From: Coleofasciculus sp. E2-BRE-01
GTDB taxonomy: Bacteria > Cyanobacteriota > Cyanobacteriia > Cyanobacteriales > Coleofasciculaceae
Reading direction: 5' to 3' (one strand)
Assembly (NCBI GenBank): GCA_040221695.1
Contig: JAVKEA010000190.1
Length of the DNA: 24,000 nt
Each line of letters starts with the position of its first letter. Within the stretch, counting starts at the first letter, position 1. This document shows, piece after piece, positions 1 to 17,293 of the stretch. The translations under genes were made by a program, and so were the position numbers. A model generated the notes under the pieces. That model saw nothing but the letters and a program-made list of their open reading frames with translations, made no database searches and was not told the origin of the DNA.

Positions 1-2291
1 CGTAAAATTTCGTGACGACGCACAATTTCATTAAGACTGCGTTCTAACAACGTCACCTTTAGCGAACCTTCTAAGCGAATAGCAAATGAAATGTTGTAAG
101 CAGGATTACCTGGCTCTAATTGGTCAATAAACCACAGCCGCTGCTGGGCAAAAGAGAGGGGGTGAATATTCGTGTTTGTCGGGACTTTTTTAAGGGTGAG
201 TGATGGTATACAATCTGCCGATTTCAGTTGTTCCAGTATCTTAATCGCCCATTGGGCAATGCTTAATCCTTCAAAAAAGTCCCCTATCGATACGGTTACT
301 TTCAGATCAACTTCAATCCGGTTTTTCAACTCAAACACTCTTAAAGAATCCAATCCCAAACTGCTTAAGGAGTGCTGGAGGTTGATTTTAGACGGTATTA
401 TTTGCATCACCTGAGCCACCAACTTCTGAAGATAAGACTCTAGAAGTAACTGACCCTCACCCGGTGGAAGAGATAGGAGAGCATCGCGATTAAGACTAGG
501 AATTGTTTCTACAAAACCAGCAACGTTCAGGATACTACGTTCTATGATAATCAGATTGCCTGCCAAGAACTTAGCTTTACAAGCACGACGTTGAATCTTA
601 CCACTAGACGTCTTGGGTATACTCCCAGGCTTAATTAAAACCACTCCATAAACTTGCACTTCATGGTCTTCAGTCACAGCCTGACGAATGGTGGCGGTTA
701 CTTCCTCAATATTAGGTTTGGCGCGAAACTCCAGTTCTTGAACCACAACCAATCGTTCTTCATTGTCAACCTCTACCGTAAACGCTGCACCACTTCTTGT
801 TCTCAGGGACGGATGACTACGTTCTACTGTCCGTTCAATATCTTGGGGGTAAAGATTACGACCGCGAATAATAATTAAATCCTTCAATCGACCCGTAATA
901 AAGAGTTCCCCATTCTGTAAAAAACCTAAGTCTCCTGTCCGCAAAAATGGTCCTTGACCTGTATCGGATAAATAGGCGCGGAATGTTTTTTTTGTCTCTT
1001 CCTGTTGATGCCAATAACCATAACCGATACTGGCACTGGATACCCAGATTTCGCCAATCTCATTGGGTAGACATTGGGTTAAGGTTTCAGGATGAACAAT
1101 ATGAATTGTCTGATCCGGTAGGGTTTGACCGCAACCGACTAAAGCGTAAATTGTTTTATTTTGATGCTCGGTGCTGGCTTCAATCGCTTGATTGCGTTCT
1201 AGCGCATCTCCTTGAATCGTTTTGTACACGGGTGGAGCCGTTTTTCGACCCCCAGATACCATCAAACTTGCTTCTGCCATCCCATAACAGGGATAGAAGG
1301 CTTCCGGACGAAAGCCGCAGGGGGCAAATTTGGTACAGAATTTCTGCAAGGTTTCCGGTTGGATAGGTTCAGCACCATTAAACGCGACATCCCAGCGACT
1401 TAAATCTAGGGTTTCTAGTTGCTCTGGCGTAATTCTTTGCAGACATAATTCATAGGCAAAATTGGGTCCACCACTGGTTGTACCTTGGTAACGGGAAATG
1501 GCTTGCAACCAACGGTAAGGACGTTGGAGAAATGCCGCTGGAGGCATTAAGATGCAAGGAAATCCGCCATACAAGGGTTGCAGGATGCCCCCAATTAACC
1601 CCATGTCATGGTACGTCGGCAACCACGACACAAATTTACTCTGAGGCGAATGTTCCATGAGACGGTACGTCATGGCGGCATTATGTAGCAGGTTACCATG
1701 ACTGAGCATGACTCCCTTGGGTGTCCCGGTAGACCCTGATGTATATTGCAGAAAGGCTAATGTATCTGTGGTTATTGAAGGCTTTTGCCAACTTTCTTCT
1801 AGTCCATTGCCCAGACTATCAGTCGTCAGCCACTGTAAATCCCCAAGGGCAGTTTTTTCAGCAAGTAGAGATTGCACCTTAGACAAGGTTGCTGTTGTCG
1901 TCAGAGCGATCGCGGCTTGAGCGTTTGCCACAACTGCCTGTATCCTGGGCATATTCCGTTGGTTGCGAGGTGGGTAAGCCGGAACTGCAACCACCCCAGC
2001 GTACAGACACCCAAAAAATGCTGCCAGATACTCTAACCCTGGTGGATACAGCAATAGGGCGCACTCACCACTTAAACCCATTGCTTGAAGTTGAGAGGCG
2101 ATCGCTCTTGCCTGCCGATCTAACTCTCGATATGTCAAGCGATCGCCTTCGGTTTCGCCATCGGGCAAAAAGGTGAAAGCCACTTGGTTCGGTTGGTGTA
2201 GCGTTCGTTGACGCAGCAGATCCACCCAGGTTGAACTATTCAGGAGGATTTCTGAACACAGGCTTGAAGATTGGATGCGTTTACTTTGCAT
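1..2291 (-). CDS. NRPS initiation module, partial: fatty acyl-AMP ligase (FAAL) - carrier protein - start of condensation domain; continues past the left edge
   Basis: Not in the ORF track because no stop lies in the window. Reverse-complement reading from the ATG at 2291-2289 is open to base 1. It begins MQSKRIQSS...VAFTFLPDGETEGDRLTYRELD and carries adenylate-forming motifs LQYTSGSTGTPKGVMLSHGNL, YHDMGL, GTTSGGPNFAYELC, GYWHQQEET, TGDLGF...GRLKDLIIIRGRN and KTSSGKIQR. A carrier motif LGLDSL follows (Ser codon at 347-345), then the condensation C1 motif PLSFAQQRLWFIDQLEPGNPAYNI at about 170-100. Confidence 0.85.
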   Translation of the reverse strand, partial: MQSKRIQSSSLCSEILLNSSTWVDLLRQRTLHQPNQVAFTFLPDGETEGDRLTYRELDRQARAIASQLQAMGLSGECALLLYPPGLEYLAAFFGCLYAGVVAVPAYPPRNQRNMPRIQAVVANAQAAIALTTTATLSKVQSLLAEKTALGDLQWLTTDSLGNGLEESWQKPSITTDTLAFLQYTSGSTGTPKGVMLSHGNLLHNAAMTYRLMEHSPQSKFVSWLPTYHDMGLIGGILQPLYGGFPCILMPPAAFLQRPYRWLQAISRYQGTTSGGPNFAYELCLQRITPEQLETLDLSRWDVAFNGAEPIQPETLQKFCTKFAPCGFRPEAFYPCYGMAEASLMVSGGRKTAPPVYKTIQGDALERNQAIEASTEHQNKTIYALVGCGQTLPDQTIHIVHPETLTQCLPNEIGEIWVSSASIGYGYWHQQEETKKTFRAYLSDTGQGPFLRTGDLGFLQNGELFITGRLKDLIIIRGRNLYPQDIERTVERSHPSLRTRSGAAFTVEVDNEERLVVVQELEFRAKPNIEEVTATIRQAVTEDHEVQVYGVVLIKPGSIPKTSSGKIQRRACKAKFLAGNLIIIERSILNVAGFVETIPSLNRDALLSLPPGEGQLLLESYLQKLVAQVMQIIPSKINLQHSLSSLGLDSLRVFELKNRIEVDLKVTVSIGDFFEGLSIAQWAIKILEQLKSADCIPSLTLKKVPTNTNIHPLSFAQQRLWFIDQLEPGNPAYNISFAIRLEGSLKVTLLERSLNEIVRRHEIL

Positions 2292-2868
2292 ACTTGGTGC
2301 AACCCTGAACTTTTGCATCTGACGATTTCAGCGATATCAAATCCCGTCAAACTGGATACCATCGATTCGGTACTTCTAATACAGATTGCTCGCTGTGGTG
2401 ATCAAGACAAGAGTTTATCCAAAGGCTCTGGTTTGATCGTCTCATATCATGTCCCTACGATTGCCCATAATTGCAATGCTGCAATAACAGGGGTTTCAGG
2501 CGTTTTTATTAGGGGTGTTTGACCGGACATGATATCAACGGATAGCCGTGCCAGCACAAGATGTTATGCCGCACTGTACGGCTATGGCGTTTTCCCACGC
2601 GCTTATTGATATCAATTTTTAATTAACCTCTGTTAAAGTACAGCAGGTTTCTCAATCTCGTCAAGCCTTAATCGAAAATCTTTTTCATTTATTTATGCCT
2701 CCCTTAGTCTGTCCCAATCTTGCCCAGAGGACCGGAAAGACCAAGAGCCTTATCTAGAGAGGGTTTCGGCAGAATTGTGATCCTGTCCGATCACCGTCTT
2801 TATCAAATCTTCATAATATTTCTCTTGACAGGGGTAACAGCGCCAGTTTAGGTTTAGCTCTTGCTGAT

Positions 2869-2887
2869 GCAAATAGTTATCAATAAA
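2869..2887. promoter_or_regulatory. Candidate Fur-type iron box upstream of the TonB-dependent receptor gene
   Basis: AT-rich gcaaatagttatcaataaa lies about 45 nt upstream of the ATG at 2929 and partly resembles the GATAAT-hexamer Fur consensus. A TTGACA hexamer sits at 2825-2830. Judged by eye only. Confidence 0.3.
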
Positions 2888-2928
2888 TTAGATGGCGCGA
2901 TCGCGCAATTGGGTGTGTAAGGAGAGAA

Positions 2929-5487
2929 ATGAAGCGAACGAAATTACTGCCGTACTTATTGCTGAGCAACTCAGTTGGTGTCTTAGTGGCAACGTCAGCC
3001 TTAGCTGAGGTTACACCAATCAGTCAATCTCCAATAATAGAACGTTCTCATCTTAGTGAGATAGAGTTTCCCCTGACCCCCGTTAAAGGACGAGTTCAGC
3101 AACCTGAGTCAGGGAAATCAGCAGTCGTTGCCCAAGTCGATGGGAACCTTGTCCAAATAACGGGTGTACAGCTTAACCCAACAGAGATGGGGTTGGACAT
3201 CATATTAGAAACCTCAGAAGGAGTCGCGCTGCAAGCCGAAACCAGGAGTGAAGACAATACCTTAATTGCTGATATCCCTAATGCCGTGCTGCTACTTCCA
3301 GAGGGTGAGGCGTTTCGCCAAGACAATCCCGTTGAAGGCATTGCCTCAGTGATAGTAACACAGCAGGATGTCAACAGTATTCGGGTGACGGTGACGGGTA
3401 CAGAAACAATACCGACAGCCGAAGTAATGTCAAGTGCATCCGGATTAGTCTTCAGCCTGACAACTGCCCCGGATACCGCTGAAATGCCGCCTGATGCCCC
3501 AGAAGAAATTGAAATTGTGGTAACGGCTGAGCCAGAAACCGGATATCGCGTCCCTAGGGCGACAACGGGGACAAGAACAGACACCCCAATCCGCGACGTT
3601 CCCCAATCTATTCAAGTTATCCCCCAAGAAGTGATTGAAGACCGTCAAGTCACCCGTCTTAGCGAATTAGCTGATAACGTCAGTGGTGTACAACCGTCTG
3701 TCGGTTATGGTGGACTTCCTTCCAATCAAACCTTTATTCGCGGTTTTCGCTCCGGAGTAAACCTCCGCGATGGTTTTCGGGATTTCGGTTTTTTGTCTCC
3801 TCGTGATGTTAGTAACATTGAGCGAGTTGAGTTTCTCAGAGGTCCAGCATCGGTTCTTTATGGCAACCTTGAGCCAGGTGGAATTGTCAATACCGTAACC
3901 GAACAGCCCCTACCCTATCCCTTCTACGAAGTGAGCATGACGGTTGGCAATTATGATTTTTACCGCCCAACCATTGACCTGACAGGACCACTTACAGAAA
4001 ATAGAGAGCTGCTTTATCGCCTCAACGTCGCCTACGAAAATGCAGACAGTTACCGGGACTTCAATGAGAACGAAAGTATCTTTATTGCTCCCGTGCTAAC
4101 TTGGAACATTGGACCGCGTACCACTCTGACCACAGAAGTTGAGTATCAAAACTATAACTACGTTTTCGATCGTGGCTTTCGACCAGAACCGGAATTTCTG
4201 GAACTCCCTCGGAGCCGATTTTTAGGAGAACCCGATTTTAACGATGCTGAAGTTGACTCCTTCTTTGGTAGCTATAGCTTTCAACATGAGTTTAGTGACA
4301 ACTGGAAATTCCGCCAAGGGTTCAGCGCTATTATCGTCAACAATGATATCCGGGAAGTCAACCTTCGCCCCTTAGAGGATGATCGACGCACCCTGCCCCG
4401 TCGCGCTTCCATGTCCGATGAATCTCAGGAAAACTATACGCTACAAAACGAATTTATCGCTGAATTGCAGACAGGCTCTATCGGTCATCAAATTCTGTTC
4501 GGACTAGACCTGAGCCGCTATGAATTCACCTACGACTTTTTCGGAGCGCCTCTAGCTTCCATTGATATCTTCGATCCGGAGTATGGAGCAGAACCTGGGG
4601 ACTTTGAGCCAAGCTTTGCTGAAGAATACGGCTCTAACACCATTGCCTTTTACATGCAAGATTTGATTGAGGTGTTGCCTCAGTTAAAAATTCTAGTAGG
4701 GGGTCGCTTGGACTGGAGTGATATCTTCTACAGAAACCGTTTTACCGATGAATCCATCAATGATCTATCAGAGTTTGCCTTCTCACCGCGAGCTGGCATA
4801 GTGTATCAGCCAACTGACTCCACCTCCCTTTATTTCAGTTGGGCGAAGTCATTTAATCCCCAGTTTTTCAGTAGGAGTCGGACAGACGAGGCGTTTGAAC
4901 CCGAACGGGGCGAACAATTTGAAATTGGGGTGAAGCAAGAGTTTTTGGATGGCAGACTGGCAGCTAACTTGGCACTTTACGAAATCACCAAGCAAAATGT
5001 TCTAACGCCTGATCCAATTGATCCTATCTTCAGCATTCAGGCGGGAGAACAAACAAGTCGGGGGATTGAATTGGAAATCGTAGGTGAAATCTTACCGGGA
5101 TGGAATATTATCGCCACCTACGCTCACACTGATGCCTTTGTCAGTGAGGATAACACGATTCCAGAAGGCGATCGCTTGGTTGGTATCCCGCTCAATAGTG
5201 CGAGCCTCTGGACAACTTATGAAATTCAACAGGGTGGTTTGCAGGGTTTAGGGTTTGGTGTCGGCGTCTTCTTCGTCGGTGACAGGGAAGCCCGACTGCC
5301 TAATACAGGCTTGGAAATTCCATCCTATGTCAGAGCAGATGCTCGTCTTTCTTATCGACGAGACAATTGGCAAGCTGCCGTTAACTTCAAGAATCTTTTC
5401 AACACCGAATATTACGAAACCCAAGGATTCTTTCTCACTCCCCAAGCTCCTTTCACGATTTTGGGAACGATTGCGGTGGAGTTTTAA
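2929..5487 (+). CDS. TonB-dependent ferric-siderophore outer-membrane receptor (FhuE/FpvA-like) with N-terminal extension
   Basis: 852 aa. Signal peptide MKRTKLLPYLLLSNSVGVLVATSALA. A roughly 150-aa extra domain precedes the plug and looks AMIN-like, as in other cyanobacterial receptors. TonB-box-like EEIEIVVTAE. Plug motifs RDVPQSIQVIPQEVIEDRQ, FIRGF and RVEFLRGPASVLYG. Long beta-barrel ending in a terminal aromatic (TIAVEF). Confidence 0.9.
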   Translation: MKRTKLLPYLLLSNSVGVLVATSALAEVTPISQSPIIERSHLSEIEFPLTPVKGRVQQPESGKSAVVAQVDGNLVQITGVQLNPTEMGLDIILETSEGVALQAETRSEDNTLIADIPNAVLLLPEGEAFRQDNPVEGIASVIVTQQDVNSIRVTVTGTETIPTAEVMSSASGLVFSLTTAPDTAEMPPDAPEEIEIVVTAEPETGYRVPRATTGTRTDTPIRDVPQSIQVIPQEVIEDRQVTRLSELADNVSGVQPSVGYGGLPSNQTFIRGFRSGVNLRDGFRDFGFLSPRDVSNIERVEFLRGPASVLYGNLEPGGIVNTVTEQPLPYPFYEVSMTVGNYDFYRPTIDLTGPLTENRELLYRLNVAYENADSYRDFNENESIFIAPVLTWNIGPRTTLTTEVEYQNYNYVFDRGFRPEPEFLELPRSRFLGEPDFNDAEVDSFFGSYSFQHEFSDNWKFRQGFSAIIVNNDIREVNLRPLEDDRRTLPRRASMSDESQENYTLQNEFIAELQTGSIGHQILFGLDLSRYEFTYDFFGAPLASIDIFDPEYGAEPGDFEPSFAEEYGSNTIAFYMQDLIEVLPQLKILVGGRLDWSDIFYRNRFTDESINDLSEFAFSPRAGIVYQPTDSTSLYFSWAKSFNPQFFSRSRTDEAFEPERGEQFEIGVKQEFLDGRLAANLALYEITKQNVLTPDPIDPIFSIQAGEQTSRGIELEIVGEILPGWNIIATYAHTDAFVSEDNTIPEGDRLVGIPLNSASLWTTYEIQQGGLQGLGFGVGVFFVGDREARLPNTGLEIPSYVRADARLSYRRDNWQAAVNFKNLFNTEYYETQGFFLTPQAPFTILGTIAVEF

Positions 5488-5517
5488 GTATCTTTGAACG
5501 AAATAGTTGAGCGCAGT

Positions 5518-5547
5518 CCCCATCTAGAATCTTTGATTTAGATGGGG
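5518..5547 (+). terminator. Stem-loop downstream of the receptor gene (possible terminator or mRNA-stabilising hairpin)
   Basis: ccccatcta (5518-5526) pairs perfectly with tagatgggg (5539-5547) across a 12-nt loop, 31 nt after the stop codon. No U-tract follows. Confidence 0.35.
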
Positions 5548-5690
5548 TGCGTTCAAACGAATGGCTCTAAAAATCCATGCCGGTGAAAGTTGTCCTCTGC
5601 TTAAAACACAAGAGCGGGTTGAGCTAATTAGACAAACAATGGCTAAGGCTGATTAGATGTCTTGCGTTTATTCAGGAACAGAGAATAGCC

Positions 5691-7016
5691 ATGAACTCAC
5701 AGCATCGACCGAACAGCCTACACACATTTACTATCATTTGGATTGGGCAAGTCGCCTCAATCCTGGGTTCCCGAATGACGAACTTTGCCGTGATCATTTG
5801 GGCGTGGCAAATCACTGGCGAGGCAACACCCTTATCCTTACTCGCCTTTTTTACCCAAATCCCAATCCTCATTGCTGCTGCCTTCGCTGGAGTCATTATT
5901 GACCACTGGAATCGCAAGCTGATGATGATTGTCGGAGATGTCATGGCAGGACTGTCCACAGTTATTATTCTTGTGCTATTCCTAACTGGCAATCTGGCAA
6001 TTTGGCATCTCTATCTAACGGGTGCTGTCAATGGGTTGTTTGGCTACCTCCAGGAACTGGCGTTCTCGGCATCCCAAGCCCTAATTGTTCCTAAACAGCA
6101 TTACGTCAGAGTTGGTGCTATGGGTTCAATGAAGACCTTTGGCTCTGGTGTCCTCGCCCCAGCGCTGGCAGGCGTACTCTACTACATCATTGGTCTTTCC
6201 GGCATTTTGATCATTGACTTCATTACCTTCCTGATTGCCATCGGCACGCTAACCCTCGTAAAAATTCCTCAACCCAAACCAAGTGAAGTGAACCAAGCCA
6301 GCACTGGCAAACGTTGGCAGCAATTGACGTTGGGTTTCCGTTACCTGTTTAACCGTCCTAGTCTCATTGCTCTCCAACTCTTTGCCCTGAGTTATATCTT
6401 CGTTGATAGAGCATCTGAGGTTGTTGCACCGATGATTTTAGCTCGCAGTGGCAATAATACGGCGGTACTCGGTAGCGTCCAAGGAGCTGTTGGTCTTGGC
6501 GGTTTAGTGGGAGCAATTCTGCTAAGTCTTTGGGGAGGACCCAAGCGTCGCATCCAGGGTCTGTTAATCGGTAGAGCGTTAGTCTTTAGCGGTGAAATGT
6601 TCTTGGGTTTAGGGCGTTTGCCCTCTATTTGGATGGGAGCCAACTTTGGTGCGGGTTTATTTAAACCCCTAGCGAATAGCTGTGAAAGTGCCCTTTGGCT
6701 GTCTAAAGTGGAACCGAACGTGCAGGGACGAGTGTTTGCTGCCAGTTCTTTTCTCGAAGGAATCATCTCACCACTAGGGCTATTGATTGCTGGTCCCTTA
6801 GCCGACTATATTTTTGAGCCAGCGATGATGCCGGGAGGCAGTCTCGCTCCCATCTTGGGGAATGTGTTTGGTACAGGTGCAGGTAGTGGGATGGCACTTC
6901 AACTGACCCTCTTCTCGTTTATTGTCGTCCTCATCTGTCTGGGTAGTTATTCTGCCTTCCCAGCATTGCGGGATATAGATGATATTTTGCCCGACCATGA
7001 TGTCGAGGCGAAGTGA
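5691..7016 (+). CDS. MFS transporter, EntS/MFS_3-like (candidate siderophore exporter)
   Basis: 441 aa and highly hydrophobic, with about 12 predicted TM helices. The N-terminus FTIIWIGQVASILGSRMTNFAVIIWAW is typical of enterobactin-exporter-type MFS proteins. It lies between the receptor and acylase genes. Confidence 0.8.
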   Translation: MNSQHRPNSLHTFTIIWIGQVASILGSRMTNFAVIIWAWQITGEATPLSLLAFFTQIPILIAAAFAGVIIDHWNRKLMMIVGDVMAGLSTVIILVLFLTGNLAIWHLYLTGAVNGLFGYLQELAFSASQALIVPKQHYVRVGAMGSMKTFGSGVLAPALAGVLYYIIGLSGILIIDFITFLIAIGTLTLVKIPQPKPSEVNQASTGKRWQQLTLGFRYLFNRPSLIALQLFALSYIFVDRASEVVAPMILARSGNNTAVLGSVQGAVGLGGLVGAILLSLWGGPKRRIQGLLIGRALVFSGEMFLGLGRLPSIWMGANFGAGLFKPLANSCESALWLSKVEPNVQGRVFAASSFLEGIISPLGLLIAGPLADYIFEPAMMPGGSLAPILGNVFGTGAGSGMALQLTLFSFIVVLICLGSYSAFPALRDIDDILPDHDVEAK

Positions 7017-7036
7017 AGAATAAGCAATAGGAAATT

Positions 7037-9142
7037 ATGTCTGTACAATCACGATCAGATAGGGGAACATTTCGACCTGTGGCTGGGCAACAAAAGACCG
7101 AAATCCTTTGGGATACCTATGGTGTTCCCCATATTTATGGTAAAGATGTCCAGAGTCTTTTCCACGCTTTTGGTTGGGCGCAAATGCACAGCCATGGTAA
7201 CTTGCTCTTGCGCTTCTACGGTCAAGCCCGTGGACGAGCAGCTGAATACTGGGGAGAAAACTATGTAGAATCTGACCAGTGGGTGCGAACAATGGGTGTT
7301 CCTAGTCGCGCCCAGCAATGGTACGATGCACAAAATCCGACGTTTCGCAACTACATTGATGCCTTTGCTGCTGGGATTAACACCTATACTCAAAACCATG
7401 CTGAGTTAATTGACAATGAGGTTAAGGGGGTGCTGCCTGTCACAGGCGTAGATGTGCTAGCTCATCTCCATCGCTTGCTTAATTTCACCTTTATTGTTGA
7501 ACCCCAGACTGTTGCCAGTTTAAGGGAAGAGTGGGAAAGTCCTCAGGATACTTCAAAAGAATTCAACACGCAAAACATCACACCCCAGAAACCCTTAGGA
7601 TCTAACGGTTGGGCGATCGCACCTTCTCGTTCTGCCAGTGGCAATGCTATGCTGCTAGCCAATCCCCACCTCCCTTGGTCAAATTTATTTCTCTGGTATG
7701 AAGCTCAGTTCAATGCCCCAGGTATCGATACCTACGGCGCAACTTTGGTTGGTATCCCAGTCTTAACGATTGGTTTCAATGATAATTTGGGCTGGACTCA
7801 CACGGTCAACAAATATAATGGGTGGGATGCCTACGAGCTAACCTTAGCTGACGGGGGCTACCGCTTTGACGGTAAAATTCACGCCTTTCAAACCGAAACA
7901 CAAACGCTAAACGTTAGGCAGCCTGATGGGACTCTACAGCAAAAACCCTTGACTGTACAATGTTGCGTCCATGGTCCAGTTATCGCCCAGAAGGAGGGTA
8001 AAGCCCTTGCCTTACGGGTGGTTGGTCTTGACCAGCCAGGGGCATTGGAGCAATGGTGGAGGATGGGGCTTGCCAAAAACCTAACTGAATTTGAAGCGGC
8101 AATCAAGCCCTTGCAGATTCCCATGTTCACGGTGATCTATGCGGATCGAGAGGGGCATATCATGCACCTATTTAACGGTCAAGTGCCAGTGCGTTCACAG
8201 GGCGATTATGCCTACTGGTCAGGCATTATTCCTGGTGACACCTCGACTACCTTGTGGACTCAATTTCACCCCTACGGTGATCTGCCTCGCGTTCTCGATC
8301 CCCAAAGTGGTTGGTTACAGAATGCAAATGACCCCCCTTGGACAACAACGTTTCCAGCACCCCTTAAACCCGATGATTATCCCTCCTATATAGCGCCGCG
8401 AGGTCCGGTGGAGTTTCGGGCGCAACACTCGGCGAAAATGCTCAAGTCAGATGAATGGATTTCCTTTGAGAAAATGGTTGAGTACAAACACTCGACCCAC
8501 GTAGAACTAGCGGAACGTCTGTTAGACGATCTAATTACGGCGGCACGGCAGCAAAGTGGAGAGGTAGCAAAAAACGCGGCGGATGTATTGGAAAACTGGG
8601 ATCGTAAAACAGAATCCGATAGTCGTGGCGCCGTGCTGTTTGCATTCTGGAGTGAAGAAGTCGATTTCTCTAACTTGTTTGCTAGTCCCTGGAATGAGCA
8701 AGAGCCATTAACTACACCCAATGGTCTTGCCGATCCGGTTAATGCCGTGACAGCCTTGGAAGCCGCTGCTCAAAGGGTTATGGCAACCTATAGAACACTG
8801 GACGTACCTTGGGGAGACGTTTTTCGGCTATGCTCTGGTAATTTAGACTTACCAGCCAATGGAGGTGAGGTTGGCATTTTCCGCAACCTCTGGTTTAGTC
8901 CTTTAGAAGACGGGCGTTTTGAAGCCATTGGTGGGGATTCCTATGTTGCCGCGATCGAGTTTTCTAATCCAGTCCGGGCGATGGCACTTACCAGTTATGG
9001 GAATGCCACTCAACCCAACTCACCCCATGTTGGCGATCAGCTAGAGCTGTTTGCCAAGAAACAGTTGCGACCGATTTGGCGATCGCGCCAGGAAATAGAA
9101 GCTCACTTGGCTACTCGCGAGGTCTTGACTGATGTGGAATAA
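7037..9142 (+). CDS. Penicillin-acylase-family Ntn hydrolase (PvdQ / acyl-homoserine-lactone acylase-like)
   Basis: 701 aa. Alpha-subunit start ILWDTYGVPHIYGKD. Autoprocessing site and nucleophile G-SNGWAIAPSRSASGNAMLLANPHLPW (Ser codon at 7601-7603). NANDPPW motif. An in-frame TAG at 7028-7030 prevents any N-terminal extension. Confidence 0.85.
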   Translation: MSVQSRSDRGTFRPVAGQQKTEILWDTYGVPHIYGKDVQSLFHAFGWAQMHSHGNLLLRFYGQARGRAAEYWGENYVESDQWVRTMGVPSRAQQWYDAQNPTFRNYIDAFAAGINTYTQNHAELIDNEVKGVLPVTGVDVLAHLHRLLNFTFIVEPQTVASLREEWESPQDTSKEFNTQNITPQKPLGSNGWAIAPSRSASGNAMLLANPHLPWSNLFLWYEAQFNAPGIDTYGATLVGIPVLTIGFNDNLGWTHTVNKYNGWDAYELTLADGGYRFDGKIHAFQTETQTLNVRQPDGTLQQKPLTVQCCVHGPVIAQKEGKALALRVVGLDQPGALEQWWRMGLAKNLTEFEAAIKPLQIPMFTVIYADREGHIMHLFNGQVPVRSQGDYAYWSGIIPGDTSTTLWTQFHPYGDLPRVLDPQSGWLQNANDPPWTTTFPAPLKPDDYPSYIAPRGPVEFRAQHSAKMLKSDEWISFEKMVEYKHSTHVELAERLLDDLITAARQQSGEVAKNAADVLENWDRKTESDSRGAVLFAFWSEEVDFSNLFASPWNEQEPLTTPNGLADPVNAVTALEAAAQRVMATYRTLDVPWGDVFRLCSGNLDLPANGGEVGIFRNLWFSPLEDGRFEAIGGDSYVAAIEFSNPVRAMALTSYGNATQPNSPHVGDQLELFAKKQLRPIWRSRQEIEAHLATREVLTDVE

Positions 9143-9197
9143 AACTACATCTGAAGTTCAATGTTTGTTGCAAAATTAAATAGATATTTTCTAGAAG

Positions 9198-9600: not shown

Positions 9601-9618
9601 CAAAGCGTGCGATCGCCT

Positions 9619-10020
9619 TTACTGTCTCTGAGCAGCGATCGCTAATTTGGTTCCCTCAATTTGACGCAACCGATCCATCACACTCACCACCCGACCATGA
9701 TCAACTTTTTCATCAGCATTGACAATGACAAGGGATTCACTATTCGGCACAACTAAAGCGCGAACGGCTTCTTCAAGCGCCTCTAATTCAATCGGCTGGC
9801 GATTCAGGGCAATTTTTCCATCGGGCTGAATCGTAACCGTAATTTCAGTACTCGGCTGATTTTGGGCAGTTGTAGCATTCGGTAAATTCACCGACAACCC
9901 TTCTGAACGGGTCAAGTATAGCGTCGAAATAATGAAAAATGCCAAAATCGAGAAAATCACATCGATCATCGGCACGATGTTAATTTCTCCTGGCTTCTCT
10001 GACTCATCGGGAAGCCGCAT
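9619..10020 (-). CDS. exbD: ExbD/TolR-family biopolymer transport protein
   Basis: MRLPDESEKPGEINIVPMIDVIFSILAFFIIST, followed by a periplasmic domain. The ATG at 10020 is preferred over 10041 because AAGGAG lies 8 nt upstream of it. Either start overlaps the end of exbB. Confidence 0.85.
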   Translation of the reverse strand: MRLPDESEKPGEINIVPMIDVIFSILAFFIISTLYLTRSEGLSVNLPNATTAQNQPSTEITVTIQPDGKIALNRQPIELEALEEAVRALVVPNSESLVIVNADEKVDHGRVVSVMDRLRQIEGTKLAIAAQRQ

Positions 10021-10654
10021 AAACCTCTCTCCTTTGCTCATATTGACGACGATAAAGCAGTTCTAACTGACCGCCATATTCCTGAATCAACGCCAGTTGT
10101 CGCTGATAAAAGCTCCGGAAAATATTGGAGAAAAAGAGGGTGAAAATTGCCACAACCAACCCCATGACGGTTGAAACCAAAGCTTCGGAAATTCCCCCCG
10201 TGACTCCCGTCGTGCGGGTTCCGCCAACATCACCAATATTCAGGGAAGAAAACGCTGTTATCAAGCCCAAAATCGTTCCCAAAAGACCGAGGAGAGGAGA
10301 AATACCAACAATCGTATCAAACACGGTATTAAATCGCTTCAACGTTGGCAATTCTGCCTGAGCTGCACTCTCTAAAGCCAGACGGAATTCCTCCGGGTTG
10401 GGGTTGTCAAGCTCTAACGCTTCGAGAAAAATCTTGGCAATCGGCAAATCAGCATTCTGCTGTAGATAGTTGATCGCCACGTCTGGCTTTTCTCGGTAAA
10501 GCTTCAGAACGTCTCTCACAACTCGGCGTTGCCGACGAGTGACCCGAAACCAAAAAAACAATCGCTCTACAATCAGGGTGACTGCCGCCAGGGAAAATAG
10601 GAGTAGGGGCCAAGCGACGATTCCGCCTGACTGGAAAAATGGAATAATGGGCAT
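10004..10654 (-). CDS. exbB: ExbB (MotA/TolQ/ExbB proton-channel family)
   Basis: 216 aa with three TM segments. Contains the conserved LLGLLGTILGLI and GGISEALVSTVMGLVVAI regions. Confidence 0.9.
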   Translation of the reverse strand: MPIIPFFQSGGIVAWPLLLFSLAAVTLIVERLFFWFRVTRRQRRVVRDVLKLYREKPDVAINYLQQNADLPIAKIFLEALELDNPNPEEFRLALESAAQAELPTLKRFNTVFDTIVGISPLLGLLGTILGLITAFSSLNIGDVGGTRTTGVTGGISEALVSTVMGLVVAIFTLFFSNIFRSFYQRQLALIQEYGGQLELLYRRQYEQRREVYAASR

Positions 10655-10720
10655 AGCCTCTCTTGCAATTGTGATTCAACAAGCTCAGCCAGCTTTCCGG
10701 CGTACCGTGAGAGTACAAGC

Positions 10721-10735
10721 TGATAATTATTTTCA
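10721..10735. promoter_or_regulatory. Candidate Fur box in the exbB/tonB divergent intergenic region
   Basis: TGATAAT-T-ATTTTCA differs at one position from the 7-1-7 palindrome TGATAATnATTATCA. It lies 67 nt upstream of the exbB start codon. A weaker GAAAATAACTATCAAAA is at 10941-10957. Confidence 0.45.
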
Positions 10736-11102
10736 ATAGATGTATTCCTAAATCGGTTTCCTTGTCAAGGTGTTGAGCGAAATATTTTTCGTTACTCAAG
10801 AGTCTGCTAGGACGTTTAGCGATCGCTTATCCAGCCAAAACCACGGATAATCGGGCGTTTAGCGACTCTTGGGGGGACTAAGTTCGGAACTCTTCCTACT
10901 TGACAGGAATAGTGAATTGGTGTAGTTAAGCCAATTTGTTGAAAATAACTATCAAAACAATTTTGTGGATATTCGTGACTAGGTTTGTCATGTTATACTT
11001 GCCAAGTTCATTTATTGTTTCACCGTTAATGCAACTTATATGCAATAATCTGGAGTGGTTGAGACGATAGGCGCTTGAGTAATCAGGAAAGGTGCGTAGC
11101 GT

Positions 11103-12863
11103 ATGAGCATATCGAGCTTCTGTATAGAGCAGCACAAAAAAGAACAAGAGGCTCTCAAAAAGTTTCTCATCTACAGCTTTGCTGGGAGTGCGGTGCTGCA
11201 TATAGTGCTAGCCCTTGGCATAAGCTGGGCTTGGGAAACAAGACCAGAACTTGCCGAAGACCCCATTGAAATCATACTTGTGGAGGAACCTGAAGTACCT
11301 AAACCAGAAGAACAACCTCTAAAAGAGACTCCAAAGCCAAAAGCAAAGACAGTTGAAACCCTAACTCCACCGCAACCGACCAAAACGCAGATACCAGAGC
11401 CAATTAAACCGCAGCAACGGGCTGACGCTTTACCTCAAAAACCCGTCCAGCAACCCGTACCTGCTCTACCAGCAACACCTCAAAAACCCGTAACGCCACC
11501 TGCACCCACCTCAGTAGAGCCACCCACTGAACCGACAAGGGAACGCAGCCCCGTTGTTACACCTCCCTCAGAACCCGTTCGTGAACCCTCAGAACCTGCT
11601 CTATCACCACCTGAACCCGTAGCCATTAATAATTCAGCACCGCCACGCCCAGAAAACAATTCCCAACCACTTCAGACTGACTCAGACGTAGGAAAACTTA
11701 GAGAACGCTTAAGCGAACCAACGACGACACAATCAACAGCACCACCCAATGATGACGCCTCTGAAGCCAACCCCACATCCCCAGGTGCAGTGGCAACCAA
11801 TCCCTCTGCACCCCCACGACCCAGAGGAGTTTCTGGAATACTTTCTGATGCGTCAAAGATTACCGAAAACATCAGAGATCGCTTAGGCGGTAGCTTTTCA
11901 GAATCGACAGGTTCTCCAAGTGCCGAAGACTCAATGGCTGACCCTGGCTTGCCAGGAGCAGTGGCGACCAATCCCTCAGCCCCTACACGACCCAGCGGTA
12001 CTTCCCAACCGCTTTCAGGTTCTTCTTCGGGTTCCCAACCATTCAGAGAAAGCTTGGGCGGTGGCAGTTCTGGCGAACGAGCTTCATCAAGTGAGGGCGA
12101 CTCAATAGCTAATCCTGGCTTGCCAGGAGCAGTGGCGACCAATACCTCAGCTCCTACGCGACCAAAACCAGGGGGTAACGCAGGGGGGGATCGAACTGAA
12201 GATGGAGGCGGGGGATTGCGTTGTATTAGGGGGTGCAATCCCGATTATCCATCCTCTTTGGAAGGTGAGGAAGGGAGAGTCCCTGTCAATGTTGAGCTGG
12301 ATAGAAACGGTAATGTAGTGAATGCGCGAGCGAGTGGAGGTACTCGCAGTAGACAATTTGTGCAAGAAGCGGAGGCAGCCACCAGGAGGATGAAGTTTAC
12401 AAAACCTGAAGGTAGAGACCGTGTTACCGTCACAGTAAATATTAACTTTACACAACCAGGCTCTGAGTTTGATCGCCAAGCTCGCGAACGTCGAGAACAG
12501 AATGAGCGCGAACGCCAGCAGAGAGAACAGGAGCGTCAGGCGCAGCTCGAACAGGAACGCCAAGAACGGGAACGTCAGGCGCAGCTTGAACAGGAACGCA
12601 AAGAACAAGAACGCCAAGAGCAACTCGAACGCGAACGTCAAGAACAGCTCGAACGCGAACGTCAAGAACAAGAACGTCAAGAACAACTTGAACGCGAACG
12701 CCAAGAACAAGAACGTCAAGAACAACTTGAACGCGAACGCCAAGAACAAGAACGTCAAGAACAACTTGAACGCGAACGCCAAGAACAAGAACGTCAAGAA
12801 CAACTCGAACGCGAACGCCAAGAACAGGTGGAAGAAGTACCCCCTCCCGAACCTACAGAGTAA
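11103..12863 (+). CDS. tonB: TonB-family energy transducer with atypical repeat block and C-terminal charged tail
   Basis: 586 aa. N-terminal anchor FLIYSFAGSAVLHIVLALGISWAW contains the SxxxH motif. A Pro/Glu/Lys-rich spacer follows, then 3 repeats of about 57 aa. TonB C-terminal domain: DYPSSLEGEEGRVPVNVELDRNGNVVNARASGG...RRMKFTKP...VTVTVNINF. About 130 aa of E/R/Q-rich sequence then follow that domain. Confidence 0.85.
   Translation: MSISSFCIEQHKKEQEALKKFLIYSFAGSAVLHIVLALGISWAWETRPELAEDPIEIILVEEPEVPKPEEQPLKETPKPKAKTVETLTPPQPTKTQIPEPIKPQQRADALPQKPVQQPVPALPATPQKPVTPPAPTSVEPPTEPTRERSPVVTPPSEPVREPSEPALSPPEPVAINNSAPPRPENNSQPLQTDSDVGKLRERLSEPTTTQSTAPPNDDASEANPTSPGAVATNPSAPPRPRGVSGILSDASKITENIRDRLGGSFSESTGSPSAEDSMADPGLPGAVATNPSAPTRPSGTSQPLSGSSSGSQPFRESLGGGSSGERASSSEGDSIANPGLPGAVATNTSAPTRPKPGGNAGGDRTEDGGGGLRCIRGCNPDYPSSLEGEEGRVPVNVELDRNGNVVNARASGGTRSRQFVQEAEAATRRMKFTKPEGRDRVTVTVNINFTQPGSEFDRQARERREQNERERQQREQERQAQLEQERQERERQAQLEQERKEQERQEQLERERQEQLERERQEQERQEQLERERQEQERQEQLERERQEQERQEQLERERQEQERQEQLERERQEQVEEVPPPEPTE
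11766..12165 (+). repeat. In-frame 171-bp (57-aa) repeats inside tonB, two full copies plus one partial
   Basis: Copies start at 11766, 11937 and 12108. Each opens with A(N/D)P(T/G)(S/L)PGAVATN(P/T)SAP(P/T)RP and ends with S-rich ...LGG.S....S.E(D/G)DS(M/I). Confidence 0.7.
12651..12827 (+). repeat. Near-perfect 39-bp tandem repeat inside tonB, 4 full copies plus a partial
   Basis: Unit gaacgcgaacgYcaagaacaagaacgtcaagaacaactY encodes ERERQEQERQEQL. Copies start at 12651, 12690, 12729, 12768 and 12807. More degenerate E/R/Q copies extend back to about 12469. Confidence 0.9.
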
Positions 12864-12953
12864 GACTGTAACCCAATGCCAGATGCAATCTCTAAAAATA
12901 ACTCAACAATTAGCCCCATCTATTTCAATTTCAATAAAGGAGGTATTTGTCTA

Positions 12954-14015
12954 ATGCTTCGTACAATCGGACGATTCGGAATAACGTTACTTATTGCCTC
13001 AAGCGTAGATATTGCCAGCCATGTTATCAATCCCTCGATCGCAGTAGCAGGTGTTGTAACCTTACCCGATGGGGGTCGCTGTGAAGGGGCAATGAGCAAC
13101 GGTAACCTCAACGGTGAAGTCGTCTGTGAATACGCGAATGGCGATCGCTATGAAGGAAACTTTGTCGATGGTAACAAGAAAGGTCAAGGCACCTACACCT
13201 TTGCTGATGGCGGTCGTTATGAAGGTGAGTTTAGCAACGACCAACCCAATGGCAAAGGTGTTCGGGTGTACGAAAATGGCGATCGCTACGAAGGGGAGTT
13301 TAAGGACGGTCAGCCTAACGGTACGGGAACCTACATTAGCGCCGATGGCGGTCGCTATGAGGGACAGTTTACGGATGGCAATCCCAGCGGTACAGGAGCC
13401 TTTATTTTAGCCAATGGCGATCGCTGTGAAGGCGAAATTCAAGACGCTAACCTCAATGGTATGGGGGTGTGCGACTATGCTAATGGCGATCGCTATGAAG
13501 GTGAACTGAGTGATGGTAAGGCGAACGGTCAAGGAGTCTACACCTTCTCTGAGGGGGGGCGCTACGAAGGAACGTTTAGCAATGGTCAGTTCAGTGGCAA
13601 AGGGGTTCGGGACTATCCCAATGGCAATCGCTACGAAGGGGAATTTAGTAATGGCAAACCCGAGGGTCAAGGCGTGTACGTCTTCGCTAATGGAAACCGC
13701 TACGAAGGTCAATTCAGTAACGGTAAATTTAACGGCGAAGGTGTTTTCACCGACGCCAATGGTAATCGTTACGAAGGACAGTTTAGTAACGGTAAGTTCA
13801 ACGGCACTGGAATTTATACGTTTGCTAATGGCGATCGCTGCGAAGGACAGTTCAGTGAGGGTCAGTTAAACGGCAAAGCTGTCTGTAACTATGCCAGTGG
13901 GGATAGCTTTGAAGGAGAATTCCTCAATGGACAAAGGCAGGGAGAAGGTGTCTATATTTTCGCTGACGGAACCCGTGTGGAGGGAAATTGGGAAAATGGG
14001 GAGATTCAAAATTAG
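12954..14015 (+). CDS. Secreted MORN-repeat protein (14 x 23-aa repeats)
   Basis: The ATG at 12954 is preceded by AAGGAGG, and the track start at 12876 adds 26 implausible residues. Signal-like N-terminus MLRTIGRFGITLLIASSVDIASHVINPSIAVAG. Then 14 repeats of G(D/G/N)RYEG.F..G...G.G.Y.F. Confidence 0.8.
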   Translation: MLRTIGRFGITLLIASSVDIASHVINPSIAVAGVVTLPDGGRCEGAMSNGNLNGEVVCEYANGDRYEGNFVDGNKKGQGTYTFADGGRYEGEFSNDQPNGKGVRVYENGDRYEGEFKDGQPNGTGTYISADGGRYEGQFTDGNPSGTGAFILANGDRCEGEIQDANLNGMGVCDYANGDRYEGELSDGKANGQGVYTFSEGGRYEGTFSNGQFSGKGVRDYPNGNRYEGEFSNGKPEGQGVYVFANGNRYEGQFSNGKFNGEGVFTDANGNRYEGQFSNGKFNGTGIYTFANGDRCEGQFSEGQLNGKAVCNYASGDSFEGEFLNGQRQGEGVYIFADGTRVEGNWENGEIQN

Positions 14016-14096
14016 TTGGGGAATGGGGCTTTGGACATTGGCAGTGCTACAACCTTTCTAGTGGCGATTGGAATAGTTGATTGAGGGCAGAAGCGA

Positions 14097-15131
14097 TTGG
14101 TAAGCAAGAGTGCTACGGCAAGAGAAACGAGTAGGGGGCGATCGCGCCTTTTACTCCCCGTGGGTTTGTCTCTGAGTCTGTTGATTCTGCTCGTCAGCTT
14201 GGTGGCAAGCATTACCTATGGTGCCGCCGATATTTCCTTCGATACTGTCTATGCCGCTTTAACCAACTTTGATGGCTCTACCGATCACCTGATTATCCGC
14301 ACAGTCAGATTGCCGCGATCGCTGATTGCCATGCTAGTGGGTGCTGCCCTTGGGGTGGCAGGTGCCCTGATGCAGGGATTAACTCGCAACCCTTTAGCTT
14401 CGCCGGGAATCCTGGGAGTTAATGCGGGTGCGGCAATGGCAGTCGTCATCGCTGTTTTCCTCTTCGGCTCATCTTCCCTGAGTGTCTATGCTTGGTGTGC
14501 CTTTGGGGGGGCAGGTGTTACGGCAATCACCGTCTATTTGCTCGGATCTCTGGGTCGAGGGGGACTGACTCCACTCAACCTGACGATTGCGGGTGCGGCA
14601 TTGACTGCCTTACTGTCCTCACTCACCACTGCCATCCTCATCCTTAGCCAACAAACCCTGGATGAAATCCGCTTCTGGTTAGCTGGATCGGTGGCGGGTC
14701 GGGATTTCACGTTGTTCTTACAAGTGCTGCCTTACATCGGCATTGGATTAGCGATCGCGTTTGCCTTAGGGAAACAAATGACCACCCTAACTCTTGGTGA
14801 CGATGTGGCTAAAAGCTTGGGTCAACAAACCCTATGGGTGAAACTAACCGCCGCCGTGAGTGTGGTTTTGCTGGCAGGGAGCGCTGTCGCGGCAGCTGGT
14901 CCGATTGGATTTATTGGTCTGGTTGTTCCCCACATTGTCCGCTTTTTAGTGGGCGTTGATTATCGCTGGATTCTGCCTTATTCTGCCATTTTTGGTGCCA
15001 TCCTACTCCTGGTCGCTGATATCACTGCCAGGGTGTTGATTAGTCCTCAAGAACTGCCCGTGGGAGTCATGACTGCTCTAGTGGGCGCTCCGTTCTTCAT
15101 TTATCTGGCGCGGTTCAAGGTGAAACGGTGA
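14097..15131 (+). CDS. FecCD-family iron-siderophore ABC transporter permease
   Basis: 344 aa and polytopic. Motifs [43 protein letters not shown] and [15 protein letters not shown]. Confidence 0.9.
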
Positions 15132-16174
15132 GAAAAAACTGGCTAGTTATTCGTCCTCGACTGTTGCCTATATCGTTCCGTATAGAACGGCGCGTACCAA
15201 CCGTACTACTCGTATTGGTTTTGGTGACTCTCGCGGCGATCGTGATCAATGTGGGGCAAGGGGAATATCCCATTCCACCATTGGCTGTTTTAAAAACGAT
15301 TGTGGGGTTGCCGACGGCTAACCCCGACTATGCCTTTATTGTGAATGTGCTGCGGTTGCCCAGAACGTTAGTCGCCTTTGGGGTAGGAGTAGGATTAGCC
15401 ATCTCTGGGACGATTCTGCAAGGACTGACACGCAATCCCTTAGCCGATCCCGGCATCATTGGCGTGAATGCGGGTGCGAGTTTAGCGGCTGTCAGTTTAA
15501 TCATTTTATTTCCAGATGTGCCGCTGTTTGCCCTACCTTTGTCTGCCTTTGCTGGAGCGTTGGTTGTTGCCATCTTTATCTACCTTCTGGCTTGGGATCA
15601 GGGCAGTTCTCCCATCCGGTTAATTCTCGTCGGTGTCGGGATAGCCGCTATCCTAGGGGCTTTGACGAATTTAATGGTCACATTGGGGGAAATTAATAGT
15701 GTCAGTCAGGCATTGGTTTGGCTGGCGGGAAGTGTCTACGGACGGGGTTGGCAGCATGTCGGGGCATTATTCCCTTGGCTGGCGGTGTTTGTACCCCTGT
15801 CGTTGGCGCTTTCGATGCCACTGAATGCCCTCTCACTGGGAGATGACCTTGCCAGAGGACTGGGGGCGAGAGTGGAGTGGCAGCGGGGTTTGTTATTGCT
15901 CATGAGTGCGGCAATGGCGGGTGCGGCTGTGGCTGTGGCGGGTACGGTTGGCTTTGTGGGATTGATGGCACCGCACTTGGGGCGTCAGTTGGTTGGACCC
16001 AATCACGAAGGGTTAATGCCAACAGCAGCGCTGATGGGTGGACTAATTATTGTGCTGGCTGATTGGTTGGCACGGGTACTCTTTGCACCCATCGAGTTGC
16101 CCTGTGGTGCGATTACCGCCGCTGTCGGTGCCCCTTATTTTCTCTATCTGCTGGTTCGCAACCGCAAGCGATGA
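15128..16174 (+). CDS. FecCD-family iron-siderophore ABC transporter permease (second subunit)
   Basis: 348 aa. Its GTG start overlaps the upstream stop (GTGA). Motifs [43 protein letters not shown] and [15 protein letters not shown]. Confidence 0.9.
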
Positions 16175-16213
16175 CCCTATCTAATTTAGGGGTTGCTGAA
16201 TAAGTGTTGTGGT

Positions 16214-16320
16214 GAGGGGGAGCGGGGGAAGCTGGGGAAGCTGGGGGAGCTGGGGGAGCTGGGGAAGCTGGGGAAGCTGGGGAAGCTGGGGAAGCTGGGG
16301 AAGCTGGGGAAGCTGGGGGA
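16214..16320 (+). repeat. Nonamer tandem array (AGCTGGGGA/G), about 11 copies
   Basis: Units are phased from 16221 to 16319. The array lies in the spacer between the second permease gene and the ATPase gene. The G-rich strand is the sense strand. Confidence 0.9.
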
Positions 16321-16379
16321 GGTGAACTCAAAACTCTACCTTACCTATTGCCCATGAAACACCGAGCGAAGCCGAGGTG

Positions 16380-16470
16380 TTGCCCATTGCCTATTGCCCA
16401 TTACCCATTACCCATTGCCCATTGCCTATTGCCCATTGCCTATTGCCTATTGCCTATTCCCTGTTCCCTT
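16380..16470 (+). repeat. Heptamer tandem array (TTGCCCA/TTGCCTA/TTACCCA), about 13 copies; STRR-type
   Basis: Direct reading shows 13 consecutive 7-nt units, ending 38 nt before the ATPase start codon. Confidence 0.9.
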
Positions 16471-16507
16471 TCCTAACCAAAATGTCCTGCTTTAGACGGA
16501 TAACCAA

Positions 16508-17293
16508 ATGAGCTTATTGTCAACTCGCCGACTTTCTCTGGCGTATGATGGAACACCTGTGATCACGAACCTCGACCTGGCAATTCCTGTCGGGAAGATT
16601 ACGGCTTTGGTTGGACCCAACGGCTGTGGCAAATCAACCCTGTTGCGGGGACTGGCGAGGTTGCTCAAGCCTTGTGCAGGTACAGTTTACTTAGACGGGA
16701 CTGATATTTTCAAGCGCTCAACCAAAGCTGTGGCGAAGCGATTGGGAATTCTCCCCCAAAGTCCAGTAGCTCCGGAGGGGTTGACGGTTCGAGATTTGGT
16801 CGCTCAGGGTCGTTACCCTTACCATAACTGGTTGCAGCAATGGTCAAAAGATGATGAAATCCTGGTGGAGAAGGCGCTTTTCATTACAGGGATAACCCAA
16901 CTGGCAGACCGAGTATTGGACACGCTTTCGGGTGGACAACGACAACGAGCTTGGATTGCTATGGCACTAGCTCAGGATACAGAGATTCTGCTATTGGATG
17001 AACCGACAACGTTTTTAGACTTGGCGCATCAAGTCGAGGTATTGGATTTGTTGTATGAGTTGAACCAGAGCGAAGGGCGGACGATTGTTATGGTACTGCA
17101 CGACCTGAATCAGGCGTGTCGCTACGCCAATCATCTGGTTGCCGTGCGCCAGGGTCAAGTTTATACAAAAGGAGAGCCAATGCAAGTTGTGACGGAGGCG
17201 ATGGTGCGTGAAGTGTTTGGTTTGGAGTGTCGGATTGTGCCTGACCCGGTAGCGGGGACGCCAATGTGTGTACCAATGGGTCGTTGGGTGTAA
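16508..17293 (+). CDS. Iron-siderophore ABC transporter ATP-binding protein (FecE/FhuC-like)
   Basis: 261 aa. Walker [10 protein letters not shown], signature LSGGQRQR, Walker [10 protein letters not shown]-loop VLHDLN. Confidence 0.9.

Follow-up and report, generated by a model that had tools for sequence, protein, structure and literature searches.

A gene cluster of Myxacorys chilensis that pairs a fatty acyl-AMP ligase (FAAL) with nonribosomal peptide synthetases (NRPSs) yields the deacylated siderophore cyanochelin C, and Di Matteo et al. attribute the deacylation to CcsQ, an N-terminal nucleophile (Ntn) acylase whose gene lies upstream of the NRPS genes in divergent orientation, next to a transporter cassette (bioRxiv 10.64898/2026.07.24.740629). 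CcsQ carries a 36-residue signal sequence; acylases of its type form a monophyletic cyanobacterial lineage that is nearest to the glutaryl-7-ACA (GL-7-ACA) acylases, not to PvdQ, with approximately 47% encoded beside cyanochelin-like clusters, and an acylase is present in 22 of 31 such clusters (bioRxiv 10.64898/2026.07.24.740629). In the same cluster, ccsJK/ccsL encode a Gly module followed by a condensation (C) domain with TauD and an Asp module (bioRxiv 10.64898/2026.07.24.740629). For uptake, Masek et al. described an AMIN-domain receptor class specific to cyanobacteria, and the CctA receptor together with the CctB binding protein proved both necessary and sufficient for Synechocystis to take up cyanochelin B, the transport cassette being located on the complementary strand upstream of the cluster (bioRxiv 10.64898/2026.07.30.741596). 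We compared these systems with a 24-kb stretch of DNA from Coleofasciculus sp. E2-BRE-01 (contig JAVKEA010000190.1; hereafter, the window). With a probability of roughly 0.8, we read the window as the upstream edge of a cyanochelin-like siderophore cluster joined to a divergent maturation and transport cassette, next to a general TonB locus.

Genes were called from a listing of open reading frames (ORFs) and a six-frame translation, then assigned with Pfam and NCBIfam profiles; labels beginning with L denote loci fetched for comparison with the window. A preceding sequence-only reading had described a self-contained siderophore locus of eight gene types, and each type is indeed present at the position assigned to it, with E-values far beyond chance. 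Using the markers for cyanochelin-like biosynthetic gene clusters applied by Di Matteo et al. 2026 and Galica et al. 2021, we found NRPS modules, a FAAL starter domain, and a nearby TonB-dependent siderophore receptor. The NRPS modules begin at the left edge, where the 5′ end of NRPS1 (2318..3, minus strand) contributes 772 codons covering the FAAL, an acyl carrier protein (ACP) domain, and the start of a starter C domain before running past the window. Its AMP-binding domain (Pfam, E = 1.6e-66) is accompanied by a DIP2-like C-terminal domain, and FAAL models of NCBIfam score 467 and 439 bits against at most 345 bits for acyl-CoA ligase models. The best NCBIfam match of this region is the N-terminus of the PvdL-type model PRK05691 (669 bits).

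The biosynthetic cluster proper is located almost entirely left of the window. In run SRR26209243, one Logan contig coincides exactly with window positions 2508-12692 and offers no leftward extension, while a second contig of that run (L082) matches positions 1-2471 with 100% identity and adds 11.5 kb to the left. There, NRPS1 is complete as FAAL-ACP-C-A(Ser)-T (~1780 aa), with the adenylation (A) domain code DVWHISLIDK indicating Ser. L082 also encodes a stand-alone TauD-family dioxygenase (288 aa) and a polyketide synthase (PKS) protein of domain order KS-AT-KR-ACP-C (2009 aa) that corresponds exactly to MEQ9237079.1 of Coleofasciculus sp. E2-BRE-01. A partial C-A gene at the contig end matches MEQ9237078.1 (P0378) of the same strain at 494 of 494 residues, and the full protein reads C-A(Gly, code DILQLGLIWK)-T-C-TauD; when the cut C-A gene served as a homology query, only fragments of no more than 66% identity came back. 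Together, L082 and P0378 provide ~20 kb of the assembly line from the window's own genome, all of it open, without a stop or frameshift. Past this point, the cluster is readable only in the closest other genome, Coleofasciculus sp. B1-GNL1-01 (L091/L092; 94-97% nucleotide identity), where it goes on with C-A(Asp, code DLTKIGHIGK)-T-C, a lone C domain, a class-III aminotransferase gene (Aminotran_3), and a module resembling those for 2,4-diaminobutyrate (Dab). In L092, this aminotransferase adjoins a module with the code DIWEMTADDK (21784-25577). We take this code to resemble those of Dab-activating domains, which, with the aminotransferase, would recall PvdH and PvdL of pyoverdine.

This order parallels that of cyanochelin C in several respects. 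In both, the FAAL is fused directly to the first NRPS module, an arrangement that would place the fatty acid on a cleavable amide bond; a Gly module is followed by C plus TauD and an Asp module, the latter taken here from the relative; and a class-III aminotransferase belongs to the cluster, here in L092. The cluster of the window differs in starting with Ser and then a KS-AT-KR module, making it a hybrid, whereas cyanochelin C starts with Val and then a cyclized Thr, and in its additional stand-alone TauD. Because the succession of a Gly module, C plus TauD, and an Asp module is that of ccsJK/ccsL, we propose a FAAL-primed hybrid NRPS-PKS with probable β-hydroxy-aspartate chemistry, the Asp step being supplied by the relative. 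The window genome itself holds the stand-alone TauD and the T-C-TauD fusion, and the Asp code DLTKIGHIGK is found in the 94-97% identical relative only. Extending the locus leftward for A-domain specificities and hydroxylase genes, as the sequence-only reading had proposed, recovered Ser and Gly codes and TauD domains. Its view of a FAAL-primed cyanobacterial lipopeptide siderophore locus is supported by contiguous DNA of the same genome, where TauD hydroxylases are encoded together with a Gly module and, after it, C-TauD, and we agree with it that the product of this cluster is uncharacterized.

The C-terminus of the PKS protein (L082 ~11000-12515) is a C-like domain with the motif HHLLVDVGSW and the TIGR01720 signature associated with epimerization (E) domains; the thioester α-carbon at this domain is a malonate-derived CH2, and the next protein (L082 12512 onward) begins with a DCL-type C domain. 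We had considered the C-like domain and the stand-alone TauD as an "interface-domain" pair for Asp hydroxylation, a proposal withdrawn in view of the Gly specificity of the A domain that follows and of the TIGR01720 signature in the C-like domain. Two further observations concern variation along the assembly line. The module-1 A domain (L082 ~3960-4870) has been swapped between strains that share 94-97% identity in the FAAL domain, with codes for Ser in the window genome and L002, an Asn-like code in L090, and Gln in L083. After the PKS gene, L091 (16112-17080) and L083 (16055-17023) have a sulfotransferase gene that is missing from the window genome through a clean 1.15-kb indel at L082 12497-12501; this hints that some relatives may make sulfated congeners.

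Divergent from NRPS1 across an intergenic region (2319-2928), the cassette opens with a TonB-dependent siderophore receptor of the CctA class (2929-5487, plus strand; 852 aa). Pfam resolves an AMIN domain (residues 80-161, 3.4e-14), a Plug, and a full barrel; a signal peptide is present, and the protein is 72% identical to the receptor of the relative L083. Downstream lies a major facilitator superfamily (MFS) exporter candidate, CctC/EntS-like (5691-7016, plus strand; 441 aa), recognized by Pfam MFS_1 and MFS_3 and by the NCBIfam EntS model at 72 bits. Relative to the cyanochelin B cassette CctA-J of Leptolyngbya sp. NIES-3755, the window shares an AMIN-Plug-barrel receptor that comes first on the strand opposite the cluster, an MFS gene, and two FecCD permeases (CctE/F). 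It lacks CctB, CctD, and the DevBCA-like CctGHJ, and it contains an ATPase, exbBD, and tonB, the ATPase being absent from the NIES-3755 cassette; as insertions, it also has an acylase and a thioesterase remnant.

Could these iron-transport genes be coincidental neighbors of an NRPS-PKS that makes a bioactive lipopeptide other than a siderophore? Among cyanobacterial lipopeptide clusters with other functions, FAAL starts are common (bioRxiv 10.64898/2026.07.24.740629), and the exbBD/tonB-MORN-fecCDE block described below exists apart from any NRPS. We nevertheless consider this very improbable. Receptor, MFS, and/or acylase genes lie divergently upstream of the homologous FAAL-NRPS start in L004, L007, L009, L011, L014, L016, L083, and L089, a synteny that crosses cyanobacterial orders, with the MFS gene kept beside this start in L007, L009, L014, L016, and L089. 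The TauD domains and the Gly and Asp modules fit the cyanochelin chelating motif, and the receptor scores 389 bits against the siderophore-receptor subfamily model TIGR01783, above its cutoff of 223.5.

The eight gene types listed in the sequence-only reading are all there, but the locus is not self-contained, because the window lacks a periplasmic substrate-binding protein. Neither tblastn with the binding proteins of L083 and L089 nor a Pfam scan of the ORFs found a Peripla_BP_2 protein (CctB) in the 24 kb, whereas in L083 and L089 the corresponding gene directly follows the receptor gene. The 353-aa genes of L085 and L086 were examined as hidden binding proteins and rejected, since both encode the MORN protein discussed below. 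No match to CctD, a thioredoxin-like ferredoxin (Suc_Fer-like), was found in the window; it is present in L088 and L089. The cassette of L089 is complete, comprising an AMIN receptor, a binding protein, an MFS protein, a Suc_Fer-like CctD, and an acylase with a clear signal peptide.

Between the receptor and MFS genes, the window retains the last 32 codons of a FhuF_C-like gene (5558-5653, plus strand), 81% identical over 32 aa to a 67-aa ORF of L085 by tblastn. That ORF matches Pfam FhuF_C weakly (E = 0.0034), and a full-length homologue was not found among the fetched loci. FhuF_C is of the 2Fe-2S siderophore-reductase type, and sister strains keep the 67-codon version where the window keeps 32 codons. 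Because the deletion end points differ, the gene appears to have been lost independently in these strains.

The acylase follows the MFS gene (7037-9142, plus strand; 701 aa). It is a member of the penicillin-amidase family with a full-length Pfam match (3.9e-135, 453 bits), and its Ser189 lines up with the first residue of the β-chain in solved acylases, so the catalytic Ser at the N-terminus of the β-subunit is kept. Compared against the Protein Data Bank, it scores 642 bits to glutaryl-7-ACA acylase and 223 bits to PvdQ, and against the PvdQ equivalog model NF051460 it reaches 252.5 bits where the cutoff is 950. The label "PvdQ-type" given in the sequence-only reading must therefore be replaced; like CcsQ, this Ntn acylase is nearest to GL-7-ACA, divergent from the NRPS genes, and beside the transporter cassette. 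Its adjacency to a FAAL-NRPS siderophore cluster recurs in L009, L011, and L089.

One feature of CcsQ is missing. In place of the 36-residue signal sequence, the window acylase has only 18 polar residues (MSVQSRSDRGTFRPVAGQ) before the conserved core and no N-terminal signal peptide; the protein begins MSVQSRSDRGTFRPVAGQQKTEILWD, and the reading frame is closed by a stop 6 nt before the ATG. In L009, L011, and L089, the homologues start with clear hydrophobic signal peptides, and that of L002 has a degenerate one. Without an export signal, deacylation would take place in the cytoplasm or not at all.

The absent export signal, expected of a periplasmic maturation enzyme, together with the glutaryl-7-ACA/cephalosporin acylases being the nearest solved relatives, would also suit an AiiC-like quorum-quenching or β-lactam-type enzyme unrelated to the siderophore. 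To this reading we give very little weight, as the placement of the acylase gene, between the MFS gene and the remainder of the cassette, is conserved in L002, L009, L011, L085, and L089, and the monophyletic cyanobacterial lineage with ~47% of members beside cyanochelin-like clusters is likewise nearest to GL-7-ACA (bioRxiv 10.64898/2026.07.24.740629).

Pyoverdine is the more distant parallel. PvdL also starts its NRPS with an N-terminal acyl-ligase module, PvdQ is also an Ntn hydrolase for acyl removal, and the Dab-type module and aminotransferase of the relative recall PvdL and PvdH. The window system differs in having no PvdQ equivalog and no chromophore chemistry, and PvdQ is periplasmic while the window acylase has no signal peptide. 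The idea of acylation followed by deacylation, drawn in the sequence-only reading from this parallel, is right, with an Ntn acylase placed to remove the acyl chain and the homologous cyanochelin C/CcsQ system giving a deacylated siderophore. It is no longer new, because the 2026 preprints already describe a FAAL-NRPS with a divergent receptor/MFS/acylase cassette, and the novelty implied for the arrangement falls with it.

Behind the acylase gene lies a type II thioesterase pseudogene (9198-9600, plus strand), noted earlier as a remnant. Relative to the intact 247-aa gene of the 94%-identical L002, it has sustained a 341-bp internal deletion at 9317|9318 that takes out the GHSMGG (GxSxG) serine motif and shifts the frame, leaving a Pfam match limited to profile positions 134-222 of 226; L085, like L002, has an intact gene. 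Sister strains carry lesions of their own. In the region between the MFS gene and the NRPS, L002/L091 and L085/L090 retain no more of the receptor gene than its first ~65 codons, the rest being deleted. In L085, an IS605 TnpB element occupies the precise position of the acylase start codon, and an RRXRR gene separates exbB from tonB; the coordinates given for these mobile-element insertions (IS605 TnpB, RRXRR) are L085 13988-15303 and 8953-9360.

Such lesions raise the question of whether the locus, although cyanochelin-like, is decaying in this lineage, such that production, maturation, or re-import of the siderophore may have ceased in this strain and different strains keep different fragments, for example as a receptor-only "user" or a producer without a receptor. 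Within the window, this reading is favored by the frameshifting 341-bp deletion in the thioesterase, the lost signal peptide of the acylase, the absence of the binding protein and a CctD homologue, and the 32-codon FhuF_C-like remnant. The sulfotransferase indel, the module-1 A-domain replacements (Ser, Asn-like, Gln), the truncated receptors (L002/L091, L085/L090), and the IS605 TnpB element at the L085 acylase start add to it from the strain comparison. Several points oppose it. The ~20 kb of assembly-line sequence contains no stop or frameshift, and dN/dS values against L002 (FAAL, 0.12; MFS, 0.18; acylase, 0.25) place these three genes under purifying selection. Type II thioesterases are accessory, and a gene for the binding protein could lie elsewhere, as that for the ATPase does in Leptolyngbya NIES-3755. 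We regard decay as possible but on the whole unlikely, and give about the same weight to the siderophore cycle being non-functional in this strain.

A rewired cyanochelin scheme was also entertained because the acylase has lost its export signal yet is under purifying selection. The acyl chain would then be removed in the cytoplasm before export and serve as a purely biosynthetic handle, and import would proceed without a cluster-encoded binding protein, with the MORN protein perhaps acting as a periplasmic partner of TonB or of the ABC importer. We view this combination as decidedly improbable.

The remaining iron-transport genes form the TonB block. The genes exbD (10041-9619, minus strand; Pfam ExbD, 1.2e-30) and exbB (10654-10004, minus strand; Pfam MotA_ExbB, 2.2e-34) diverge across an intergenic region (10655-11102) from a gene for a long TonB (11103-12863, plus strand; 586 aa), whose TonB_C domain is recognized by both Pfam and NCBIfam. 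ExbB, ExbD, and a TonB_C-domain protein are thus all encoded in the window, and exbB/exbD orthologues share 72-99% identity across filamentous cyanobacteria. The TonB protein consists of a transmembrane anchor, a Pro-rich spacer, three repeats of ~57 aa, TonB_C at residues 381-449, and a C-terminal ERQ-rich coiled-coil tail; this layout is the same in L086, L087, and L089, with the tail variable in length in L086 and L089 and short in L087. The tail of ~130 aa, positioned after TonB_C, is encoded by 39-bp tandem repeats (window 12524-12827; 5 copies, 97% matches).

Next to tonB is a gene missing from the inventory of the sequence-only reading, lying between tonB and fecC and encoding a secreted MORN-repeat protein (12954-14015, plus strand; 353 aa; Pfam MORN, 2.7e-85). 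We examined the context of the TonB block in five loci with ExbB as the anchor. Beside a divergent exbBD, a conserved pair recurs, namely a long TonB (N-terminus MSISSFC...) followed by a MORN protein bearing a signal peptide (MLRTIGRFG...), with the MORN gene after tonB in L085 (5823-6884), L086 (3281-4342), L087 (6820-7854), and L089 (3995-4984) and encoding ~330-353 aa. The pair is spread across Coleofasciculaceae, Phormidium, and UBA8553 (L089), and the MORN gene is under strong purifying selection (dN/dS against L002, 0.11). The importer genes complete the block, with two FecCD permeases (14097-15131 and 15128-16174, both plus strand) and a FecE-like ATPase (16508-17293, plus strand), identified by Pfam and by FhuB/FecD/FecE-like NCBIfam models.

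This block was previously assigned a TonB dedicated to the siderophore, a designation weakened by the recurrence of the block where no NRPS lies within 10 kb, which favors a general system. In the 9.3-Mb genome of L086, the exbBD/tonB-MORN block is accompanied by fecCDE with no NRPS in that range, and in Phormidium (L087) neither fecCDE nor an NRPS is found within 10 kb. The siderophore cassette adjoins the TonB block again in UBA8553 (L089). In Synechocystis, the gene after tonB (slr1484) is slr1485, which bears the annotations "phosphatidylinositol phosphate kinase" and "salt-induced periplasmic protein", and both genes are iron-induced IutR targets (PMC11221513). The likeness to slr1484-slr1485 of Synechocystis sp. 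PCC 6803, where tonB is directly followed by a gene for a MORN-type secreted protein, is one of gene order and annotation only. Since the block recurs without a nearby NRPS and its gene order matches slr1484-slr1485, we favor exbBD/tonB-MORN-fecCDE as probably the general iron-uptake locus of the lineage, with the siderophore cassette beside it.

Returning to a cyanochelin-like cluster with its divergent cassette, the domain order is directly observed, and from it the chemistry can be sketched as follows. The FAAL would adenylate a fatty acid and load it onto the ACP, after which the starter C domain would link it to Ser through an ordinary amide bond. The KS-AT-KR module would add a reduced C2 unit, followed by Gly, a TauD-hydroxylated Asp, and further residues, given the Dab-type module and aminotransferase of the closest relative. 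The MFS protein would then export the lipopeptide, and the CcsQ-like Ntn acylase, for which the fatty acyl-Ser amide is the likely substrate, would release a hydrophilic siderophore with β-hydroxy-aspartate as its putative chelating group. The ferric complex would return through the AMIN-domain receptor, powered by TonB-ExbB-ExbD, and cross the inner membrane via FecCD/FecCD/FecE. As encoded in this strain, the scheme is incomplete, in that the binding protein is elsewhere or missing, the editing thioesterase is dead, and the acylase has no export signal.

Several points weigh against our preferred reading. Of the parts needed for the cycle, the locus of this strain has no binding protein, no signal peptide on its acylase, and only a damaged thioesterase gene, and the Asp-specific module and the end of the cluster come from the relative and not from the window's own genome. 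The stand-alone TauD and the E-like C domain of the PKS protein (TIGR01720) have no place in the scheme. The locus may be iron-regulated, as sites resembling the Fur box suggest, but these sites are weak. The best match in the window (10716-10740), in the exbB/tonB intergenic region, has 5 mismatches to the 19-mer consensus, and that in the NRPS/receptor intergenic region (~2863-2887) has 6-7. Against the defining features of the described systems, the acylase shares with CcsQ the Ntn fold and β-Ser, the closeness to GL-7-ACA, and the FAAL-NRPS neighborhood without the signal sequence, and the transport genes reproduce the AMIN receptor, MFS, and two FecCD permeases of the Cct cassette without CctB and CctD.

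Other features of the window touch the siderophore genes less closely. Rfam and tRNA scans gave no matches, and scans for sigma-70 promoters and terminators did no better than chance. The 333-bp spacer separating the second FecCD permease gene from that of the FecE-like ATPase (between 16174 and 16508) is packed with short tandem repeats. Arrays with 7- and 9-bp units occur at window positions 16216-16318, 16380-16458, 17316-17367, 17535-17569, and 20844-21086, with the units GGGGAAGCT (x11), TTGCCCA (x11), TGGGGAAGC, TGTGGGG (x12), and TGACAAA (x13), and fill intergenic spacers, including that between fecD and fecE; presumably, they are akin to the short tandemly repeated sequences of filamentous cyanobacteria. 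Right of 17.3 kb, the window holds unrelated housekeeping genes, namely a methyltransferase gene, ureE, two DUF4168 genes, and holA. Over 66 bp, a 2H-phosphoesterase-like ORF (22100-22885, plus strand) overlaps at its start with the annotated GTG start region of holA (22165-21086, minus strand), and the true holA start probably lies further downstream than the annotated GTG.

Taken as a whole, this locus introduces no new principle, as both maturation by a FAAL plus an acylase and the AMIN-receptor cassette have been described. It adds a member from Coleofasciculus, a mat-forming lineage of marine and hypersaline settings, to the small set of cyanochelin-type clusters, with a new predicted backbone of acyl-Ser-ketide-Gly-OHAsp.... 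Its remaining interest lies in the uncharacterized product, the signal-less acylase, and the conserved tonB-MORN pair. Furthermore, close strains differ in the receptor, the acylase start, the thioesterase, the sulfotransferase, and the specificity for the first residue, and in this respect they form a natural series for the gain and loss of siderophore production and piracy.

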